A program made the translations under genes and the position numbers. Shown here one piece after another: positions 679 through 57,556 of a stretch of 64,000 bases of DNA. The notes below the pieces were generated by a model that worked only from the letters and a program-made list of their open reading frames with translations, was not told the DNA's origin and did not search any database. Origin of the DNA: Gaiellaceae bacterium (GTDB taxonomy: Bacteria > Actinomycetota > Thermoleophilia > Gaiellales > Gaiellaceae); NCBI GenBank assembly GCA_036496305.1, contig DASXLJ010000003.1, positions 23,777 through 87,776 on the forward strand, read 5' to 3'. Every line of letters starts with the position of its first letter. Position 1 is the stretch's first letter.

Positions 679-695
679 GTGCTAGAACGGTACCG

Positions 696-1139
696 ATGCG
701 GCGGGAGTTCTCGGCGGGAGGAGTGCTGGTGCGGTCGATCCGCGGCCGGCCGCACATCGCCGCGATCCGCCCTCGCGGTCGGCCCGGCGTCTGGGCGCTG
801 CCGAAGGGGAAGATCGACGACGGGGAGTCCGCAGCAGAGGCAGCGCTGCGCGAGGTGCGCGAGGAGACCGGAGTCGTCGGGCACCTCGTCGAGAAGCTCG
901 GCGACGTCCGCTACACGTACACCGCCACGTGGGAGCCGGTCAAAGGAGAGAGGATCTTCAAGATCGTGAGCTTCTTCCTCCTCAGAGCCGGCCGCGGCCG
1001 GATCGACGACCTCGACGAGGAGATGCGTATCGAGGTCGACGAGGCGCGGTGGCTGCCACTCGACGACGCGCCGCGCCTGCTCACGCACAAGGGCGAGCGC
1101 GAGATGGCGGCGCGGGCGATCGAGAGGCTCAGCTCATGA
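696..1139 (+). CDS. NUDIX hydrolase
   Basis: Nudix box [23 protein letters not shown] (GX5EX7REUXEEXGU). Start taken at [12 protein letters not shown] (ATG 696). The stop overlaps the next gene (ATGA). Confidence 0.85.
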
Positions 1140-2158
1140 TCAATGTCGCCGACTACCTCGACGCCGCGCGGGAGAAGGTCGCGCCCGAGGTCTGGTGCTA
1201 CTTCGAAGGCGGCGCCGGAGACGAGGTGACGCTCCGCGGGAACGTCGCCGCGTACGAGCGCTGGCAGTTGCGGCCGCGGATGCTCGTCGACGTGAGCGGG
1301 GTGACGACGACGGCGACGCTCCTCGGCACCGAGGTCGCGTCTCCGCTCGGGATCGCTCCGTTCGCGATGCAGGCACTGCTCGATCCCGACGGCGAGCTCG
1401 CCACTGCGCGCGCGGCTGCGGCGGCCGGCACGCTCATGTGCGTCTCGACGCTGACGACGCGGACGCACGCTGCGATCCGCGAGGCTGCCGGCGACGGGCC
1501 GCGCTGGTTCCAGCTCTACGTCCTCAAAGATCGGCAGCGAACGCTCGACCACATGCACGAAGCGCGGGAGGCCGGCTACTCGGCGCTCGTGCTCACCGTC
1601 GACGCGCCGTACATCGGCCGGCGCGAGCGCGACCTCCGGCTCGGCTTCGAGAACCCGCCGCCCGACCTCGACCTCCCGTACGCGAACCTCTTCGAGATGA
1701 CGCCGTCGCTCACGTGGCGCGACCTCGAGTGGATCCGCGCCGAGGTGCCGCTGCCGATCGTCATCAAGGGGATCCTCACGCGGGAGGACGCGGAGCTCGC
1801 GGTCGAGCACGGCGCCGACGCCGTCTGGGTCTCGAACCACGGCGGCCGTCAGCTCGACGGAGTCCCGGCCGGGCTCGAGGCGCTGCCGGAGGTCGCGGAC
1901 GCGGTCGCTGGACGCTGCGAGGTGTACGTCGACGGCGGCATCCGGCGCGGCACCGACGTCCTCAAGGCGCTCGCGCTCGGGGCAGACGCCGCGTTTGCGG
2001 CCCGCCCGTTCGCCTGCGCGCTCGCCGTCGGCGGCGAGGCCGGCGTCGCGCACGCGCTCTCGCTCCTCCGCGACGAGATCGAGCTCGGGCTCGGTCTCCT
2101 CGGGTGCACGTCCCCCGGGCAAGTCACGCGCGCACATGTTCAGCCAACGCCGTTCTGA
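1136..2158 (+). CDS. FMN-dependent alpha-hydroxy-acid dehydrogenase/oxidase (LldD/glycolate oxidase family)
   Basis: [36 protein letters not shown]...WFQLYVLKD...LTVDAPYIGRRERD...SNHGGRQLDG are hallmark motifs of the family. Confidence 0.85.
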   Translation: MINVADYLDAAREKVAPEVWCYFEGGAGDEVTLRGNVAAYERWQLRPRMLVDVSGVTTTATLLGTEVASPLGIAPFAMQALLDPDGELATARAAAAAGTLMCVSTLTTRTHAAIREAAGDGPRWFQLYVLKDRQRTLDHMHEAREAGYSALVLTVDAPYIGRRERDLRLGFENPPPDLDLPYANLFEMTPSLTWRDLEWIRAEVPLPIVIKGILTREDAELAVEHGADAVWVSNHGGRQLDGVPAGLEALPEVADAVAGRCEVYVDGGIRRGTDVLKALALGADAAFAARPFACALAVGGEAGVAHALSLLRDEIELGLGLLGCTSPGQVTRAHVQPTPF

Positions 2159-2177
2159 ATTGGCAGACTGACGGCCT

Positions 2178-2561
2178 GTGTTCGCGTTGAACTTCTACTC
2201 GCCGCTCGTGTCGGAGCAACTGCGGAGCGGCCGCAAGTCGGCCACGATCCGGCTCGGCGACAAGTCTGCGAAGTACAAGAAGGGGATGATCGTCAGCGTG
2301 CTGTGCGGCGTGCGCTTCAGCCCGCGCGAGCACGTCTTCGACGCGGTGATCGACAAGGTCGAGGTCAAGCGCCTCGGCGAGCTGTCACCGCGCGAGATCG
2401 AGCACGACAACCCGGAGATCCGCCGTAGCGACGAGCTCGCGACCTTCCTCGGCCAGCTCTACAACCGCGAAGTCGGCAGCGACGACCTCGTCACCGTGAT
2501 CCGCTTCTCGCAGATCATGAACGGCCCCGTCGTGCCGGCCTTCGAGGGCGACCTCTTCTAG
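2178..2561 (+). CDS. ASCH-domain (PUA-like fold) protein, 127 aa
   Basis: GTG start. SGRKSATIRLGD...FDAVIDKVEVKRLGELSPREIEHDN resembles the ASCH domain pattern. High third-position GC. Confidence 0.6.
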   Translation: MFALNFYSPLVSEQLRSGRKSATIRLGDKSAKYKKGMIVSVLCGVRFSPREHVFDAVIDKVEVKRLGELSPREIEHDNPEIRRSDELATFLGQLYNREVGSDDLVTVIRFSQIMNGPVVPAFEGDLF

Positions 2562-2563
2562 TT

Positions 2564-2592
2564 CCGTCGGAAGAGCTGCGCTCTTCCGACGG
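2564..2592 (+). terminator. Perfect 13-bp hairpin directly after the ASCH gene
   Basis: CCGTCGGAAGAGC-tgc-GCTCTTCCGACGG begins 3 nt after the stop. No U-tract, as is common in high-GC genomes. Confidence 0.5.
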
Positions 2593-2703
2593 GATTGAAG
2601 GAACTCCGGCGCGGAAGAGCGCGGTCTCCCGCGCCTCCCGTGCGTAGACCTCATTTGGTGCGAAGTTGGCACACCTCGCCATTGACAACACGGCGACTCT
2701 TCT

Positions 2704-2726
2704 AGGCGGTGTCGGACACCGTGTCC
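2704..2726 (-). repeat. 23-bp palindrome-core repeat ('P2'), inverted copy with 1 mismatch
   Basis: AGGCGGTGTCGGACACCGTGTCC is the reverse complement of GGAAACGGTGTCCGACACCGCCT with one substitution. The same element occurs at 42295-42342 (x2) and 58947-58969. Confidence 0.7.
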
Positions 2727-2789
2727 GCAAACGGAGGAGGCGCGCCCCCCGCTCGAGGCGTGGCAAAGCTCCGGGGCGAAGAACGGCTT

Positions 2790-2881
2790 GTAACACTTTG
2801 TCACTAACTCGGACAGCGTCGTTTTGGACGGGGGCCACAGATGAACACACGCATCCGCGGTCGCTAGTAACAAAGTGTTAC
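2790..2881 (+). repeat. ~92-bp element bounded by GTAACA-N3-TGTTAC palindromes ('P1' element, copy 1)
   Basis: GTAACACTTTGTCAC (2790-2804) and GTAACAAAGTGTTAC (2867-2881) are in inverted orientation. The core is ~50% identical, with conserved blocks, to the reverse complement of 45981-46073. AT-rich in a GC-rich genome. Confidence 0.6.
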
Positions 2882-2970
2882 TTGGAAAGACACGCCTCGT
2901 CGGGACGGGCCGAATTGCCGGCTGTCGGCGGTTTCGGCCGCTTAAGCGGCTCGAGCGGTTCGAGGCGGTT

Positions 2971-3468
2971 TCAGCGGTTCCAGGGGAGGTCGTCCCACGA
3001 GGCGGGACGTCCGTCTAGCCACTTCGGGAACGGCTCGTACGCGACGCTCGGCTTGTCCGTCTCCTCTTCGACGCCTGCGCCGTGCGCGAGCGCGGTCTCG
3101 TTCCGCTCGTAGATGATCGAACCCTCGCGCAACCCGAGCGTGACCATTACGCACGGCACGTCTCCCGCGCCGACGAACGCGTGCGGCGTGTCGCGTGCGC
3201 AGTGGAAGTAGTCCCACGGCTTCAGCGGCCGCTCCTCCCCGTCGACGATGAGCAGGCACTCGCCCTCTACGACAAGGAATCCCTCCTGGCCCGTCTCGCG
3301 GTGGTACAGCGTGCTCGGCTTGCCCGGCTCGAGGACGTGGACTCGCGCGCCGAACTGCTGCTCGTCGCCGCCCGGGACGAGCATCGTCCGCGCGCCGAAC
3401 TTCTCGTTCACGAACCAGTCGGTGTCCGCGACGTTGCGGACGAACCACTCAGCCACGGCGGATCCCAT
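2971..3468 (-). CDS. Cupin-domain protein (165 aa), paralogue of 14269-14745 and 14742-15224
   Basis: MGSAVAEWFVRNVADTDWF...VLEPGKPSTLYHRETGQEGFLVVEGECLLIVDGEERPLKPWDYFHCARDTPHAFVGAG is a two-motif cupin barrel. ATG at 3466-3468 (rc). Confidence 0.8.
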   Translation of the reverse strand: MGSAVAEWFVRNVADTDWFVNEKFGARTMLVPGGDEQQFGARVHVLEPGKPSTLYHRETGQEGFLVVEGECLLIVDGEERPLKPWDYFHCARDTPHAFVGAGDVPCVMVTLGLREGSIIYERNETALAHGAGVEEETDKPSVAYEPFPKWLDGRPASWDDLPWNR

Positions 3469-53698: not shown

Positions 53699-54537
53699 CC
53701 GGCGTTCTGCTCGCGCTCGCCGCGAGCCTGTCGTGGGGCCTGTCCGACTTCGGCGGCGGGCTCGGAGCGCGCCGCATCCAGATCATCTGGGTGCTCGTCG
53801 TCTCCCAGCTCGCGGGGCTCGCGCTCGTGGGAACGATGTACCTCGTGACGCAGCCGCAGGCGCCGACCGAGCGCGAGTACGCGTGGGGAGTGTTCGCCGG
53901 CGTCATGGGCGCCGTCGGCCTCGCGGCGTTCTACCGTGGGCTCGCCGTCGGGGCGATGGGAATCGTCGGGCCGATCTCCGCCACCGGCGCGATCGTCCCG
54001 ATCGTGTACGGGCTCGCGCGCGGCGAGCGGCCCGCCGCCCTGCAAGCGGTGGGGATCATCGTCGCCGTGATCGGCGTCGTCGCCGCATCGCTCGAACCGC
54101 TGCCCGAAGGCGCAGGGCGAAAGCTCGCGACCGGAGTCGGCTTTTCACTCATCGCCGCGCTCGGGTTCGGCTGCTCGATCCTCGGCCTGAACCGCGTCTC
54201 GCAGGCGGGCGTCGTCTGGGGGACGCTGTCGCTGCGCCTGACGGTCGTACCGATCGTCCTCATCGCCGCGCTGATCGTTCGGCCGTCCGCGGCGAAGCTC
54301 CGTCCCCTTCTCCCCTTGCTCATCGCGGTGGGCCTCTTCGACACCGGAGCGAACCTGCTGTACGGAGCGTCGGCGCGCCACGGGCTGATCAGCGTCGTCT
54401 CGGTGCTCGCCTCGCTCTATCCGATCGTGCTCGTCGGGCTCGCGTACATCGTCCTGCACGAGCGGATCTCGCGGCCGCAACTCGCGGGGGTCGCCCTCGC
54501 GCTCGCCGGCGTCGCGCTCATATCGGCAGGCGGCTGA
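53695..54537 (+). CDS. EamA/DMT-family transporter
   Basis: 280 aa, ~10 TM, with an internally duplicated EamA-like architecture. Confidence 0.85.
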   Translation: MTGVLLALAASLSWGLSDFGGGLGARRIQIIWVLVVSQLAGLALVGTMYLVTQPQAPTEREYAWGVFAGVMGAVGLAAFYRGLAVGAMGIVGPISATGAIVPIVYGLARGERPAALQAVGIIVAVIGVVAASLEPLPEGAGRKLATGVGFSLIAALGFGCSILGLNRVSQAGVVWGTLSLRLTVVPIVLIAALIVRPSAAKLRPLLPLLIAVGLFDTGANLLYGASARHGLISVVSVLASLYPIVLVGLAYIVLHERISRPQLAGVALALAGVALISAGG

Positions 54538-54886
54538 CCTTCTCCTCGATCACGACGCGCAGCTCGCGGGCTTCCTCGAGGCACATGCCGGCGGGATCGG
54601 CGAGCTGCCAGTCGACGTACTCCTTGCCCGGAATGTAGGGACACGCGTCGCCGCAGCCCATCGTCACGACGAGATCCGCCCACTCGACGTCCTCGCGCGA
54701 AAGCTTGTGCGGGACGCGCCCCGAGATGTCGATTTCCACCTCCTCGAGCGCCTCGACGACGACCGGGTGGAGCTCGGCCGCGGGATTCGACCCGGCAGAG
54801 CGTCCCTCACCACCGCGCCGCTCATACAGCGCTTGCGCCATCTGCGAGCGCCCGGCGTTCTGGATGCAGACGAAGAGGACGTTCAC
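54518..54886 (-). CDS. arsC: Arsenate reductase, LMW-PTPase type
   Basis: CX5R P-loop VLFVCIQNAGRSQMA and distal cysteines MGCGDACP. Confidence 0.9.
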   Translation of the reverse strand: MNVLFVCIQNAGRSQMAQALYERRGGEGRSAGSNPAAELHPVVVEALEEVEIDISGRVPHKLSREDVEWADLVVTMGCGDACPYIPGKEYVDWQLADPAGMCLEEARELRVVIEEKVSRLPI

Positions 54887-55560
54887 GCCTCGGCCTCGGC
54901 GCGCGGGCTTTCGCCGCGCACGAACTGGTAGGCGAGGCCTCCGATCGAGGCGCCGAGGATCGGGGCGGCGATGTAGAGCCAGAGCGCATGCAGATTCCCC
55001 GAGACGACCGCCGGCCCGATGGAGCGAGCCGGGTTCATCGACGCGCCGGAGATCGGGCCGCCGAACATCGCGTCGAGGGCGATCGTCCCCCCGATCGCGA
55101 TCGCCGCGGCCTCGCCCACGGCGCGCGTGTCAGTCGCGACGGCGAGGATCACGAACATCAGGAACGCGCTCATGACGAGCTCCCAGAGGAACGACTGGCC
55201 CTGCGAACCGGACGGCAACGTCGCGCCCACATCCGCGATGTTCCCGAGCGAGCCCCGGAGCAACGCCGCCGCCACGAGCGCGCCGAACAGCTGCGCCGAC
55301 CAGTAGAGACCGGCGCGGCGCCAGGGGAAGTGCCGCGTCAACGCGAACGCGAAGGTCACGGCCGGATTGAAGTGGGCGCCGCTGATGTGGCCGACGGCGT
55401 AGATCCCGAACATGATCACGAGGCCGAAGCTGATCGCCACGCCGATATGGCCGAGCTGATGCGTCTTTGCATCGACCATGATCGCGCCGCATCCGGCGAA
55501 GACGAGCGCGAACGTGCCGATCGCTTCGGCCGCCAGGCAGCGAGTGATGGGACGCGTCAT
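54883..55560 (-). CDS. MIP-family channel (aquaglyceroporin, probable arsenite channel)
   Basis: Two NPA boxes (HISGAHFNPAVT, GASMNPARS). ATG 55558-55560 (rc) overlaps the arsR stop. Confidence 0.9.
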   Translation of the reverse strand: MTRPITRCLAAEAIGTFALVFAGCGAIMVDAKTHQLGHIGVAISFGLVIMFGIYAVGHISGAHFNPAVTFAFALTRHFPWRRAGLYWSAQLFGALVAAALLRGSLGNIADVGATLPSGSQGQSFLWELVMSAFLMFVILAVATDTRAVGEAAAIAIGGTIALDAMFGGPISGASMNPARSIGPAVVSGNLHALWLYIAAPILGASIGGLAYQFVRGESPRAEAEA

Positions 55561-55874
55561 CCGCCGAGCGTGTCCCGCAACTCGCGGACGGCGTCCGGCA
55601 CGAGTCGGTAGTACGCCCACGTTCCGCGGCGGCTCGACTCGACGAGCCCGGCGTCACGCAGCACCTTGAGGTGATGGGAGATCGTCGGCTGCGACAGGTC
55701 GAAAGCCGCGTTGAGATCACAGACGCAGCACTCGTCGGTCGATGCGAGCCGGCTGACGATCGCGACCCGCGTGGGATCGGAGAGCGCCCGGAAGCGAGCG
55801 GCCAGCGACTCACTCGCTGCGATGTCGAGCGGCTCCATGCTCGGGCCGCAACAGATGACCGGCAACGTCTTCAT
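55557..55874 (-). CDS. arsR: ArsR/SmtB-family metalloregulator
   Basis: HTH SQPTISHHLKVLRDAGLV, alpha3 metal site ECCVCDL, and N-terminal VICCGPS cysteines. Confidence 0.9.
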   Translation of the reverse strand: MKTLPVICCGPSMEPLDIAASESLAARFRALSDPTRVAIVSRLASTDECCVCDLNAAFDLSQPTISHHLKVLRDAGLVESSRRGTWAYYRLVPDAVRELRDTLGG

Positions 55875-55915
55875 CGATCTGTGTCAATATACCATCCATC
55901 GAAATCAATCGATGA
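55871..55915. promoter_or_regulatory. AT-rich divergent control region with nested inverted repeats (candidate ArsR operator/promoters)
   Basis: TCATCGAT(55871-78)...ATCGATGA(55908-15), plus CATCGA-aatcaa-TCGATG (55897-55914). TATATT on the minus strand lies ~11 nt before the arsR ATG. Confidence 0.45.
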
Positions 55916-55927
55916 AAGGAGGACGCG

Positions 55928-55984
55928 ATGAGCGACACCGACTGCTGCGACTGTTGCTGCTGCAAGAGCGGCAAGTGCTGCTAG
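55928..55984 (+). CDS. 18-codon cysteine-rich small ORF: MSDTDCCDCCCCKSGKCC (candidate mini-metallothionein)
   Basis: Not in the ORF track (too short). AAAGGAGGA lies 6 nt upstream of the ATG. 16 of 17 sense codons after the ATG end in G/C, matching host bias although the flanks are AT-rich. 9 Cys. A terminator hairpin follows 11 nt after TAG. Confidence 0.5.
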   Translation: MSDTDCCDCCCCKSGKCC

Positions 55985-55995
55985 GCCGACCGTGT

Positions 55996-56019
55996 CGGCG
56001 GGGGCGTACGACCCCGCCG
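55996..56019. terminator. Bidirectional hairpin between the Cys-rich sORF and ychF
   Basis: CGGCGGGG - 8 nt - CCCCGCCG followed by gcgTTTcgTT. 10 nt from the ychF stop on the other strand. Confidence 0.6.
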
Positions 56020-56028
56020 GCGTTTCGT

Positions 56029-56925
56029 TCAGACGTTGAAGCGGATGTTGAGGACGTCTCCGTCCTCGACGACGTAGTTCTTGCCTTCGAGCCGTGCCTG
56101 ACCGCCCGCGAGAAAGTCGTCGGTCGGCGTCACCTCGGCGCGGATGAAGCCGCGCGCGATGTCGGAGTGGATCGTCCCCGCGGCGTCGAGCGCCGTCTCG
56201 CCCCGGCGGAGCGTCCACGCGCGCGTGTCCTTCTCCCCGGCCGTGAAGAACGTGATCAGGCCGAGCGTCTCCGTCAAGCGGCGCACGACCTCGCCGAGCG
56301 CCGACTCGCCGCCGCCGCGGAACTCCGCCGCTTCCTCGTCGCTCAACTCCGAGAGCTCCGCTTCGAGCGCGAGATCGATCCCGTCAGGCCCGTTGACGAT
56401 CGAGATCAGCGGCTTCGTCGTGAGCGGATCGAGCTCGGACGAGAGCTCTCCGTCCCACTCGGCAAGCGTGTGGCCGGCGTCGACGTGCGCGAGCAGCCGC
56501 TCGGTCTCCGCCGCCTCGGCGCGCACCTTCGCGTCGCCCGACTTCGCCTGCTTCGCGACGCGGTCGAGCCGCTTCTCCACGTGGTCGCGGTCGGCGACGA
56601 GGAGCTCGAGCTTCAGCGTCTCGAGGTCGTCGTCCGGAACGCGCGTCCCCGAGAAGCCGTCGAGCACGACGAGCAGGGCGTCGACCTGGCGGAGGTTCCC
56701 CAGCAACTGCGGCCCCGTCCCCGGAACGTCGACGACGCGCACCGCCGCGGGAGTGATCTTGCGCGCACCGACGTGAGCCGCGAGAGCATCCAGGCGAGGA
56801 TCCGCGATCTGCGCCATCCCGACGTGCTCCTTGCCCGAGCCCGTCGCCTCGGCACGCGTGAGCGCGCGGAAGAGCGTCGTCTTCCCCGAGCTCGGCAGCC
56901 CGACAATCCCGATCTCCAGCGCCAC
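56029..56925 (-). CDS. ychF: YchF/OLA1-like P-loop GTPase/ATPase (short form, 298 aa)
   Basis: IGIVGLPSSGKTTLF (G1), VDVPG (G3), and the C-terminal TGS-like LITFFTAGEKDTRAWTLRRGETALDAAGTIHSDIARGFIRAEV. Confidence 0.85.
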   Translation of the reverse strand: MALEIGIVGLPSSGKTTLFRALTRAEATGSGKEHVGMAQIADPRLDALAAHVGARKITPAAVRVVDVPGTGPQLLGNLRQVDALLVVLDGFSGTRVPDDDLETLKLELLVADRDHVEKRLDRVAKQAKSGDAKVRAEAAETERLLAHVDAGHTLAEWDGELSSELDPLTTKPLISIVNGPDGIDLALEAELSELSDEEAAEFRGGGESALGEVVRRLTETLGLITFFTAGEKDTRAWTLRRGETALDAAGTIHSDIARGFIRAEVTPTDDFLAGGQARLEGKNYVVEDGDVLNIRFNV

Positions 56926-56946
56926 GGAGGCCAGGTTAGTGGGCGG

Positions 56947-57519
56947 CTACGAGCTCTCGATCTGCTTCTGGAGAGAAACGAGCGCGCGGTGCTGAAGCGA
57001 CTTGATCGCGCCCTGGCTCTTGTCGAGAATCGCCGCGACCTCCGCGTTCGGGAGGTTGAAGACGAACTTCAGCGTCAGCACCTGCTGCTGCTCCGGCGAG
57101 AGATCCTCGATGAGCTTCAGCATCGACTCACGCCCGATCGTCCGCAGCGCCTCGAGCTCGGCCGACGGCTCGGCCTCGTGCGCCGGCGGCTCGGGCACCT
57201 CCGCCTCCGGCTGCCAGCGGCGATGCGCGCGGAAGTGATCCATCGCGAGGTTGTGCGCGATGCGGAAGAGCCACGCGGAAAACGGCGCCGACTGCCACCG
57301 GAAGCTCCCGATCTTCTCGAGCATCTTGAGGAACGTCTGCGTCGTGAGGTCTTCCGCGTCGTGGCGGTTGCCGACGCTGACGTGGAGGTAGCTGTAGATC
57401 CGGTCGAAATGGATGAGGTAGAGCTCTTCGAGCGCGTCGCGATCGCCCTGTTGCCCGCGGGCGACAAGGTCGCGAAGATGCTCGGCCGACTCGTCGATCG
57501 TCCGTTCCGTCGCGCTCAT
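56947..57519 (-). CDS. ECF-type RNA polymerase sigma factor
   Basis: Region 2 (DAEDLTQTFLKMLEK...FSAWLFRIAHNLAMDHFR) and region 4 (QQQVLTLKFVFNLPNAEVAAILDKSQGAIKSLQHRAL). Confidence 0.88.
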   Translation of the reverse strand: MSATERTIDESAEHLRDLVARGQQGDRDALEELYLIHFDRIYSYLHVSVGNRHDAEDLTTQTFLKMLEKIGSFRWQSAPFSAWLFRIAHNLAMDHFRAHRRWQPEAEVPEPPAHEAEPSAELEALRTIGRESMLKLIEDLSPEQQQVLTLKFVFNLPNAEVAAILDKSQGAIKSLQHRALVSLQKQIESS

Positions 57520-57556
57520 CCTCTGAGGAGTACCCCGTACACGGCTCCGGCCTAAC

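Follow-up and report, generated by a model that had tools for sequence, protein, structure and literature searches.

A conserved cysteine-rich micropeptide gene divergent from arsR in Gaiellaceae and related bacteria, a candidate arsenite-binding mini-metallothionein

Introduction

Bacterial metallothioneins of the SmtA/BmtA type are proteins of about 50-60 amino acids that adopt a Cys9His2 zinc-cluster fold. Other small thiol-rich proteins include the copper metallothionein of Neurospora crassa, with 25-26 amino acids, and the mycobacterial MymT, with 53 amino acids and under the control of the CsoR-type regulator RicR. In plants and fungi, As(III) is chelated after arsenate reduction by the phytochelatins, (gamma-Glu-Cys)n-Gly. 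In proteins, vicinal Cys pairs serve as As(III) sites, as in the repressors CgArsR (Cys15/16) and AfArsR (Cys95/96) and in ArsD (Cys12/13), a protein of about 120 amino acids with a thioredoxin fold that docks on ArsA. Here we describe a small open reading frame (sORF) encoding a cysteine-rich micropeptide, transcribed divergently from the ArsR/SmtB-type repressor gene arsR in a 64-kb stretch of DNA from a Gaiellaceae bacterium (contig DASXLJ010000003.1 of assembly GCA_036496305.1, positions 23,777 to 87,776), which is referred to as the window. In our reading, to which we give a probability of roughly 0.58, the sORF product would be an ArsR-repressed, As(III)-inducible, cytoplasmic thiol micropeptide that binds As(III), in other words a mini-metallothionein.

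In its general layout the locus is like smtB-smtA of Synechococcus, bxmR-bmtA and azuR-nmtA, in which an ArsR/SmtB repressor is divergent from a small Cys-rich gene (PMC8790569 for AzuR/NmtA); as in smtB-smtA, the promoter region common to both genes contains inverted repeats and repression is presumed to be released by metal. Unlike SmtA, the peptides of the family described here are 12-28 rather than about 55 amino acids long, match no Pfam model and share no homology with it, have no His ligands or zinc-finger-like fold, and belong to a Thermoleophilia host rather than to cyanobacteria and to an arsenic rather than a Zn/Cd context. With the Neurospora crassa copper metallothionein and MymT they share a very short, Cys-rich and Gly/Ser/Asp-rich sequence without aromatics, with CxC and CC motifs; they differ from both in their length (median 17, minimum 12 amino acids), in the dominance of vicinal CC pairs and in the retention of a C-terminal CC, and from MymT also in being paired with ArsR. 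To our knowledge they would be shorter than any described metallothionein, the smallest of which we are aware being the fungal ones of 25-26 amino acids.

The likeness to phytochelatins, also short thiol peptides of acidic residues, Cys and Gly, is striking in the Asp/Glu-Cys-Gly composition; unlike phytochelatins, which are made enzymatically from glutathione and are gamma-linked, the sORF peptide is gene-encoded and its synthesis would be driven by a Shine-Dalgarno (SD) sequence. The vicinal Cys-Cys pairs recall the As(III) sites of ArsD, CgArsR and AfArsR, whereas the peptide has no homology to ArsD and no ArsA was seen at the locus. A further point of comparison is given by the poly-Cys ORFs of mycobacteria, which are leaderless, stand first in cysteine-metabolism operons and act in cis via RNA pairing (bioRxiv 10.1101/834739). 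The sORF is likewise actinobacterial, unannotated and very short, with consecutive Cys codons (at least two in every peptide); unlike the mycobacterial ORFs, it is SD-led in essentially all loci, is mostly monocistronic, faces a convergent neighbour and has a metalloregulator as its partner.

A conserved 57-nucleotide gene

The two genes that form the core of the locus are the following.

55928..55984, plus strand: sORF coding sequence including the stop, product MSDTDCCDCCCCKSGKCC (window sequence, uniqueness and comparative conservation)
55557..55874, minus strand: arsR, ArsR/SmtB repressor (PF01022, 2.4e-19; NF033788, 110 bits)

The sORF extends over 57 nucleotides, from the ATG at 55928 to the TAG at 55982-55984, and specifies 18 residues, nine of which are Cys, with the codons ATG AGC GAC ACC GAC TGC TGC GAC TGT TGC TGC TGC AAG AGC GGC AAG TGC TGC TAG. 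Sixteen of the 17 codons that follow the ATG end in G or C, the sole exception being TGT. When all six frames of the 64-kb window are considered, this is the only site with at least six Cys per 14 residues. The predicted tryptic peptide of MSDTDCCDCCCCKSGKCC is (M)SDTDCCDCCCCK, which would be detectable once alkylated. A preliminary description of the locus had given the same 57-nucleotide frame from 55928, half of it Cys, and the same count of G/C-ending codons; coordinates, translation and recount agree with it, and that description is correct save for small offsets, which concern the flanking signals discussed below.

Related loci were collected in two independent manners. In a genome scan, the window ArsR protein was compared with 185,579 species genomes, yielding at least 80 loci; in a scan of metagenome contigs, the upstream operator and SD pattern ATCGANNNNNATCGATGRARGGAGG was used alone, with neither protein, yielding at least 120 loci. 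Counts of the sORF over all loci are lower bounds, among the matches listed in the two scans. On syntenic contigs with close ArsR homologues, ychF and arsR are likewise about 150 nucleotides apart, with no gene annotated in between, and in each of them this interval contains a Cys-rich ORF with its ATG and an SD (MRRDDCCDDCCGGETGCC, MRRGDCCDGCCGSDTGCC or MSDCAPGGDCCDGEDCC); a further peptide variant of the family is MDDCETGGCCGDGCC. Specifically, a divergent sORF of 13-21 codons is found in all listed loci in which ArsR is at least 60% identical and the upstream DNA is present, as well as in one Demequinaceae metagenome-assembled genome (MAG) with an ArsR of 50% identity. About 50 listed loci with an ArsR of about 50% identity, from Mycobacterium, Micromonospora, Actinoplanes and others, have no sORF. 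In the metagenome sample retrieved by the motif only, the sORF is present in 113 of the 118 loci with enough downstream DNA (109 by strict thresholds and four just outside them); the other five comprise one apparently frameshifted copy (L099), two unrelated sequences and two arsM cassettes (L093 and L095). Shuffled downstream sequence, by comparison, passes the Cys-rich sORF criterion in one of 23,600 trials.

A divergent arsR-sORF pair is thus counted in at least 126 loci, carried mostly by Gaiellaceae and other actinobacterial MAGs and by metagenome contigs, with partner ArsR proteins that are 45-100% identical to the ArsR of the window. These loci reduce to 106 distinct nucleotide sequences and 102 distinct peptides. 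Translation would start at ATG, GTG or TTG, the stops TGA, TAG and TAA occur 59, 45 and 2 times, and Cys is encoded by TGC 558 times and by TGT 109 times. Between nearest neighbours, the differences at codon positions 1, 2 and 3 number 35, 37 and 85, respectively. Although the length of the sORF ranges between 12 and 28 codons and indels are many, the ATG and the terminal CC-stop share one frame, and this is the signature of a translated and selected ORF. The preliminary description had regarded a frame not kept in syntenic loci as the observation that would speak against a gene, and had proposed a small-ORF-aware search beside arsR homologues; at least 126 divergent pairs are listed here, and the frame is kept both at ArsR identities of 60% or more and in the 113 motif-only loci.

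A chance, unexpressed ORF in a CTG/CAG-rich spacer might be imagined in view of the very short length, of the poly-Leu and poly-Gln read in the other frames and of the absence from protein collections. The conservation statistics and the outcome of the shuffles, however, leave almost no probability for this explanation, which the comparative data effectively rule out. The 57-nucleotide ORF is a genuine gene, far above chance level. Two longer frames on the opposite strands, a 54-amino-acid poly-Gln ORF antisense to the sORF (55810-55974, minus strand) and a 614-amino-acid ORF antisense to ychF (55711-57555, plus strand), were rejected as shadow ORFs typical of high-GC DNA.

Some individual copies deserve mention. 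GGTGCC is triplicated in frame in L195 (match at 1497, plus strand), where the peptide, MRGECCEGCCGGTGCCGGTGCCGGTGCC, reaches 28 amino acids, and the family seems to evolve via frame-keeping repeat expansion of this kind. In L099 (match at 912, minus strand) MRLRHEASGCCDSD is followed by 55 codons out of register, the counterpart in L109 being MRLRHEASGCCDSDCCGGGC; this looks like a frameshifted copy of the sORF, pseudogenised or mis-assembled, and the neighbouring ArsR is more divergent, with 47% identity. L017 (JAGWRZ010000114.1) is labelled as an Acidobacteriota MAG, yet it is syntenic and its ArsR is about 70% identical to those of Gaiellaceae loci, so that its label is possibly a binning error.

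Properties of the peptide family

The 102 distinct peptides are 12-28 amino acids long, with a median of 17, and are composed of about 37-39% Cys, 19.5% Gly and 16.5% Asp; aromatic and aliphatic residues each account for about 1% or less (F+Y+W about 0.5%), and His for 0.5%. At least one CC pair is present in all of them, a CxC in 55, and 94 (92%) end in CC-stop. The alignment consensus, M-x(2-4)-[DE]CC[DE]-x-[DG]CC-G-x-[GD]CC*, is characterized by three vicinal Cys pairs, and the non-Cys positions are limited to Asp, Gly, Glu, Ser, Pro and Thr.

The broad operational traits of metallothioneins, namely low mass, high Cys content, CC and CxC motifs and few aromatics, are therefore all found in these peptides. 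Membership in the SmtA/BmtA family (Pfam Metallothio_Pro) is not, as no model is matched, the length is only 12-28 amino acids and His stays at 0.5%. More generally, a Pfam and NCBIfam profile search with seven padded family peptides gave no match, even at E<=10; six peptide variants of at least 20 amino acids are absent among about 15 billion predicted proteins; Rfam covariance models give no match at E<=1 in the region 55600-56300; and a full-text literature search found no description of such a gene. The preliminary description had stated that it knew of no described family like this one and had estimated the peptide as about three-fold shorter than known bacterial metallothioneins. The former statement holds for Pfam, NCBIfam, Rfam, the protein databases (for the six variants of at least 20 amino acids) and the literature, and the latter is in keeping with 12-28 as against about 55 amino acids.

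A peptide so rich in Cys could also act, with no metal role, as a redox or thiol buffer or as the precursor of a ribosomally synthesised and post-translationally modified peptide (RiPP), small Cys-rich precursors being known in RiPP families. This explanation is very improbable, given that no conserved modifying enzyme, protease or exporter lies nearby, the called neighbours being ychF, an extracytoplasmic-function (ECF) sigma factor, a glyoxalase, arsC, EamA and an HD protein, that no leader/core organisation is apparent in 12-18 residues, and that the predicted control is by an ArsR-type metalloregulator.

The regulatory region shared by arsR and the sORF

The following elements flank the sORF on its two sides.

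55915..55923, plus strand: Shine-Dalgarno sequence AAAGGAGGA, core GGAGG at 55918-55922 (from the sequence; conserved in the loci)
55897..55914, no strand: candidate ArsR operator box 2, CATCGA-N6-TCGATG, a perfect inverted repeat between the -10-like element and the SD
55872..55889, no strand: candidate operator box 1, CATCGA-N6-TCAATA, with two mismatches to box 2
55884..55891, no strand: TCAATATA block, candidate shared -10-like element (from conservation)
55993..56022, no strand: GC-rich hairpin between the convergent stops of the sORF (55984) and ychF (56029) (from folding)

The spacer from the ATG of arsR (55872-55874, minus strand) to that of the sORF measures 53 bp and has a GC content of 45%, versus 68% for the window. 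The sORF start lies 4 nucleotides from AAAGGAGGA and 5 nucleotides from the GGAGG core. A GAAAGGAGG-like SD is found in all genome-derived loci, which were retrieved by ArsR homology and not by the SD motif, and in the metagenome loci the start codon follows GGAGG by 3-7 nucleotides. An upstream ATG, contained in ATCGATGAAAGGAGG, was ruled out as the true start of the sORF, being in frame in some loci only. On the opposite strand arsR is without an SD, while that of the sORF is near-perfect.

The inverted repeat of box 2 is kept in genome-derived loci and in the spacer consensus. Box 1, the sole one in L016 and L017, overlaps the arsR start codon and the -10-like block. In addition, a 9-nucleotide inverted repeat, TTCATCGAT/ATCGATGAA, occupies 55870-55878 and 55908-55916. 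Across 66 unique spacers the conservation of the CATCGA and TCAATATA blocks is 90% or more, even though they fall outside the search pattern; the whole set of conserved cis blocks comprises CATCGA, TCAATATA, ATCGA, ATCGATG and AAAGGAGG, in the order CATCGA...TCAATATA...ATCGA...ATCGATGAAAGGAGG. These repeats are where ArsR would be expected to bind.

Read on the minus strand, the TCAATATA block gives TATATT, 11 nucleotides upstream of the arsR ATG, and with such an element arsR would have little or no leader. The plus-strand reading is TATACC in the window and TATAGT in most relatives, about 35 nucleotides before the sORF ATG. The block may accordingly supply the promoter -10 for both genes. 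In L008, the sORF is separated from arsR by an insertion (680-3001) that comprises an IS1595-family transposase gene (PF12762/PF12760) and a small ORF; box 1 and the -10 block are gone, and the SD and the sORF, MKRGDCCDCCGCGTGCC, are intact.

Downstream of the sORF, the stem of the hairpin pairs 55993-56003 with 56012-56022 at -26.6 kcal/mol and starts 8 nucleotides past the stop. Its z-score against shuffles is only -1.2, and a strict terminator scan does not accept its tail, GTTTCGTT, which has no proper U-tract. Many loci have a similar or a different hairpin at the same place, which is impossible in the 27 loci in which the two convergent stops abut (see below). The hairpin is a possible bidirectional terminator.

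It is in this region that the small offsets of the preliminary description are found. The strong SD it reported stands, with a gap of 4 nucleotides (5 from the core) instead of 6; the GC hairpin is there as well, with a stem that begins at 8 rather than 11 nucleotides after the stop and a T-rich terminator tail that is weak and not universal. The 53-bp AT-rich spacer with CATCGA-N6-TCGATG was described accurately, and the smtA-smtB-like divergent layout with inverted repeats is both present and conserved.

The ArsR partner

The ArsR of the window is characterized by two Cys motifs, an N-terminal ICCGP and an ECCVCDL in alpha-3. Its best solved relative is 6J0E, that is CgArsR, on whose ECC pair the ICCGP motif is aligned. 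An N-terminal xCC[GA]P together with an alpha-3 C(C)VC is found in all 122 anchored partner ArsR proteins, and the Cys arrangement of a CgArsR-type regulator, with an N-terminal vicinal pair and a third Cys near alpha-3, is found here. None of the NCBIfam equivalog cut-offs is reached by the window ArsR, the best being the Rv2640c family with 87.5 bits against 155. The divergent ArsR is kept in every context, including the loci without ychF.

Genomic context

The genes next to the arsR-sORF pair in the window are listed below.

54883..55560, minus strand: channel of the MIP family carrying two NPA motifs, with a start ATG that overlaps the stop of arsR (ATGA)
54518..54886, minus strand: arsC, arsenate reductase of the low-molecular-weight phosphatase type; its GTG overlaps the MIP stop (GTGA)
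56029..56925, minus strand: ychF-like GTPase gene, convergent with the sORF; a syntenic neighbour outside the module

On the minus strand, the genes of the window follow each other in the order arsR, MIP channel, arsC. The best solved relative of the arsC product is the arsenate reductase 3T38 (E 2.9e-30), and 14 of its 15 PDB matches are named arsenate reductase or ArsC. For 105 loci, the gene after arsR was identified by targeted ORF extraction and tblastn with the window proteins; gene calling and neighbour clustering based on the GC content of third codon positions (GC3) were discarded as noisy in DNA of 68-70% GC, in which they gave antisense shadow ORFs and merged clusters. The results were as follows.

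ArsC homologue: 56 of 105 loci
Nothing co-directional: 34 of 105 loci
MIP: 1 of 105 loci, the window only
NicO transporter: 3 of 105 loci (L026, L128, L159; PF03824, E 2.9e-95)
Na+/H+ exchanger: 3 of 105 loci (L144, L145, L180)
Other genes: the remainder of the 105 loci

Where nothing co-directional follows arsR, as in 34 loci, the repressor has no adjacent candidate target but the sORF. The MIP gene between arsR and arsC resembles the arsR-aqpS-arsC arrangement of Sinorhizobium and, among the 105 loci, occurs in this genome only.

Behind the sORF, 94 of 121 loci have a convergent ychF, and the other loci have heterogeneous genes. In 27 of these 94 the stops of the sORF and ychF abut or overlap, as observed in L018, L019, L020, L022, L023 and some 20 metagenome loci (...TGCTGCTAGACGTTGAA..., in which CTAG provides the stop on either strand); with abutting stops and no intergenic terminator, the sORF transcript must run antisense into ychF. 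In L016 (2247-2882), L017 (2254-2889) and L021 (2167-2874), all on the minus strand, a gene for a FitA-like ribbon-helix-helix (RHH) and Clp_N protein of 211-235 amino acids is inserted between the sORF and ychF, co-directional with the sORF and about 30 nucleotides past it. As arsR is constant and the genes after the sORF and after arsR are variable, the minimal conserved unit is arsR plus the sORF.

These observations bear on the possibility that the Cys codons matter rather than the peptide, the sORF being a sensor of Cys-tRNA or thiol supply in which stalling controls downstream or antisense (ychF) transcription. Runs of Cys codons are Cys-responsive attenuators in mycobacteria (bioRxiv 10.1101/834739), a hairpin lies close behind the stop in the window, the transcript is forced into ychF in the 27 loci just mentioned, and a co-directional ORF comes right after the sORF in L016, L017 and L021 (the FitA-RHH/Clp_N gene) and in L027, L101, L190 and L193. 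The mycobacterial ORFs, however, are leaderless and head cysteine-metabolism operons, whereas here a strong SD is conserved, no cysteine-metabolism gene was recognised and the next gene is convergent or else heterogeneous, a variability that argues against a poly-Cys leader peptide. Moreover, a pure codon sensor would need neither the restricted set of non-Cys residues nor the kept CC-stop, and the module, when it moves, retains arsR and not ychF. We therefore regard a codon sensor as decidedly improbable.

The two arsM cassettes retrieved by the motif scan have the operator half-sites and a ATCGATGAARGGAGG SD directly before arsM (L093, at 114, minus strand; L095, at 4046, minus strand). Their arsM products score 282 and 293 bits against NF008823, for a cut-off of 263, and no arsR is adjacent, an indication that the ArsR regulon extends further. 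At its N-terminus the ArsM of L093 bears an enlarged Cys-rich loop, GCGCGCDCESIGCC, in the style of the peptides. That the sORF is a remnant of an arsM 5'-end was considered and rejected, the N-termini of the arsM products (MTLDVREQVRERY...) being unrelated to the peptides.

A peptide of this kind might be an As(III)-binding chaperone or a regulatory partner instead of a sink, passing arsenite on to ArsM or to a channel or pump, or exchanging it with ArsR so as to tune induction, in analogy with the delivery from ArsD to ArsA. Its vicinal Cys pairs resemble those of ArsD, the L093 loop is peptide-like and the capacity of a pure sink is limited. There is, however, no constant protein partner but ArsR, as about half of the loci lack arsC and few have MIP or arsM; likewise, low complexity, a length of 12-28 amino acids and the repeat expansion in L195 fit bulk chelation better than a specific interface. 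A chaperone role is rather unlikely on these grounds. The attachment to an arsenic-resistance operon claimed in the preliminary description, on the other hand, is strengthened by the 56 loci with arsC, by the two arsM cassettes and by the alignment of the ArsR Cys-Cys pair on that of CgArsR.

Proposed function

If the sORF product is a mini-metallothionein and its gene the principal divergent target of an As(III)-sensing ArsR, the following sequence of events can be envisaged. In the absence of metalloid, ArsR dimers would occupy the two ATCGA-N6-TCRAT boxes, which overlap the back-to-back -10 elements and the 5' untranslated region of the sORF, and both arsR (with MIP and arsC in the window) and the sORF would be off. 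As(III) that enters the cell, or arises from arsenate via ArsC, would bind the Cys-Cys and CVC site of ArsR and release the repressor from the DNA. The strong SD would then drive high-level translation of the 18-residue peptide, whose three vicinal Cys pairs, with Asp and Gly between them, would bind As(III) as AsS3, the six core thiols accommodating about two As per peptide. In this form arsenite would be buffered until its exit, here downhill via the MIP channel, or its methylation. ArsR repression, As(III) induction, translation in vivo, and arsenic binding with its stoichiometry are all features that we infer from the sequence. Four observations point to arsenic: arsC is linked to the module, two cassettes precede arsM, a MIP channel is encoded in the window, and the regulator is similar to CgArsR. 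As(III) would on these grounds be the probable ligand.

A different ligand is conceivable for the same layout of repressor and mini-metallothionein, for example Cd, Pb, Zn, Cu(I), Ni/Co, Sb or Bi, with the linkage to arsC being secondary. An N-terminal Cys followed by CVC is also the alpha3N arrangement through which CadC responds to Cd, Pb and Zn. A NicO gene follows arsR in L026, L128 and L159, a P-type-ATPase-like ORF, judged by eye, lies near L027, and the classic ArsR/SmtB-controlled SmtA, BmtA and NmtA handle Zn or Cd (PMC8790569). Nevertheless, arsenic genes dominate among the neighbours (arsC in 56 of 105 loci, arsM twice, MIP), the best solved homologue of the regulator is an arsenic repressor with its Cys-Cys pair aligned, and His, typical of Zn metallothioneins, is absent from most peptides. 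Another metal as the ligand is unlikely, if still of some weight, and some sub-clades of the arsR-sORF module may respond to other cations.

Several further observations weigh against an As(III)-binding mini-metallothionein and have to be set beside those that favour it. The Cys pattern of ArsR is also compatible with a CadC-like Cd/Pb/Zn site, which it resembles, and the same CC and CVC pattern is found in 23 sORF-less actinobacterial loci, for example of Mycolicibacterium and Microbacterium, so that it was rejected as a predictor of the sORF. In a few loci a NicO nickel/cobalt transporter (three) or a Na+/H+ exchanger (three) replaces arsC, and no efflux pump was seen adjoining the module. 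The Cys positions are not rigid, as nearest neighbours differ by 16 Cys replacements and 21 synonymous changes. Consensus scans of the locus find neither a sigma-70-type promoter nor a terminator, and both roles are assigned from conservation and folding. Finally, a stoichiometric sink would be a weak defence at high arsenic. As far as can be judged from sequence, every part of the earlier interpretation that could be tested in this way came out favourable.

Conclusions and perspectives

Arsenic resistance in bacteria is taught as a matter of reducing, pumping, methylating or oxidising the metalloid. According to a paper of 2025, no gene for intracellular sequestration is known within ars operons (PMC12093948). 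If the reading proposed here is true, an ArsR-controlled thiol micropeptide would fill this sequestration gap in ars systems, in parallel with the phytochelatins of plants, and would represent a third strategy beside efflux and methylation, co-induced with arsenate reduction. What would appear to be new is an unannotated micropeptide family, built on the known logic of repressor and thionein and newly tied to arsenic. Tentatively, and at a little under even odds, abundant soil Actinobacteria (Gaiellales and relatives) might possess a ribosomal, phytochelatin-like arsenite chelator of 12-28 amino acids, the smallest metallothionein known and the missing sequestration arm of ars systems.

The more than 100 variants present in public assemblies, none of which has been called as a gene, illustrate how a conserved family of fewer than 30 codons escapes annotation. 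In addition, the CC-x-CC-x-CC motif would offer a tractable model of As(III)-thiolate chemistry, and the peptides, together with the operator/SD cassette, could provide parts for arsenic biosensing and bioaccumulation.

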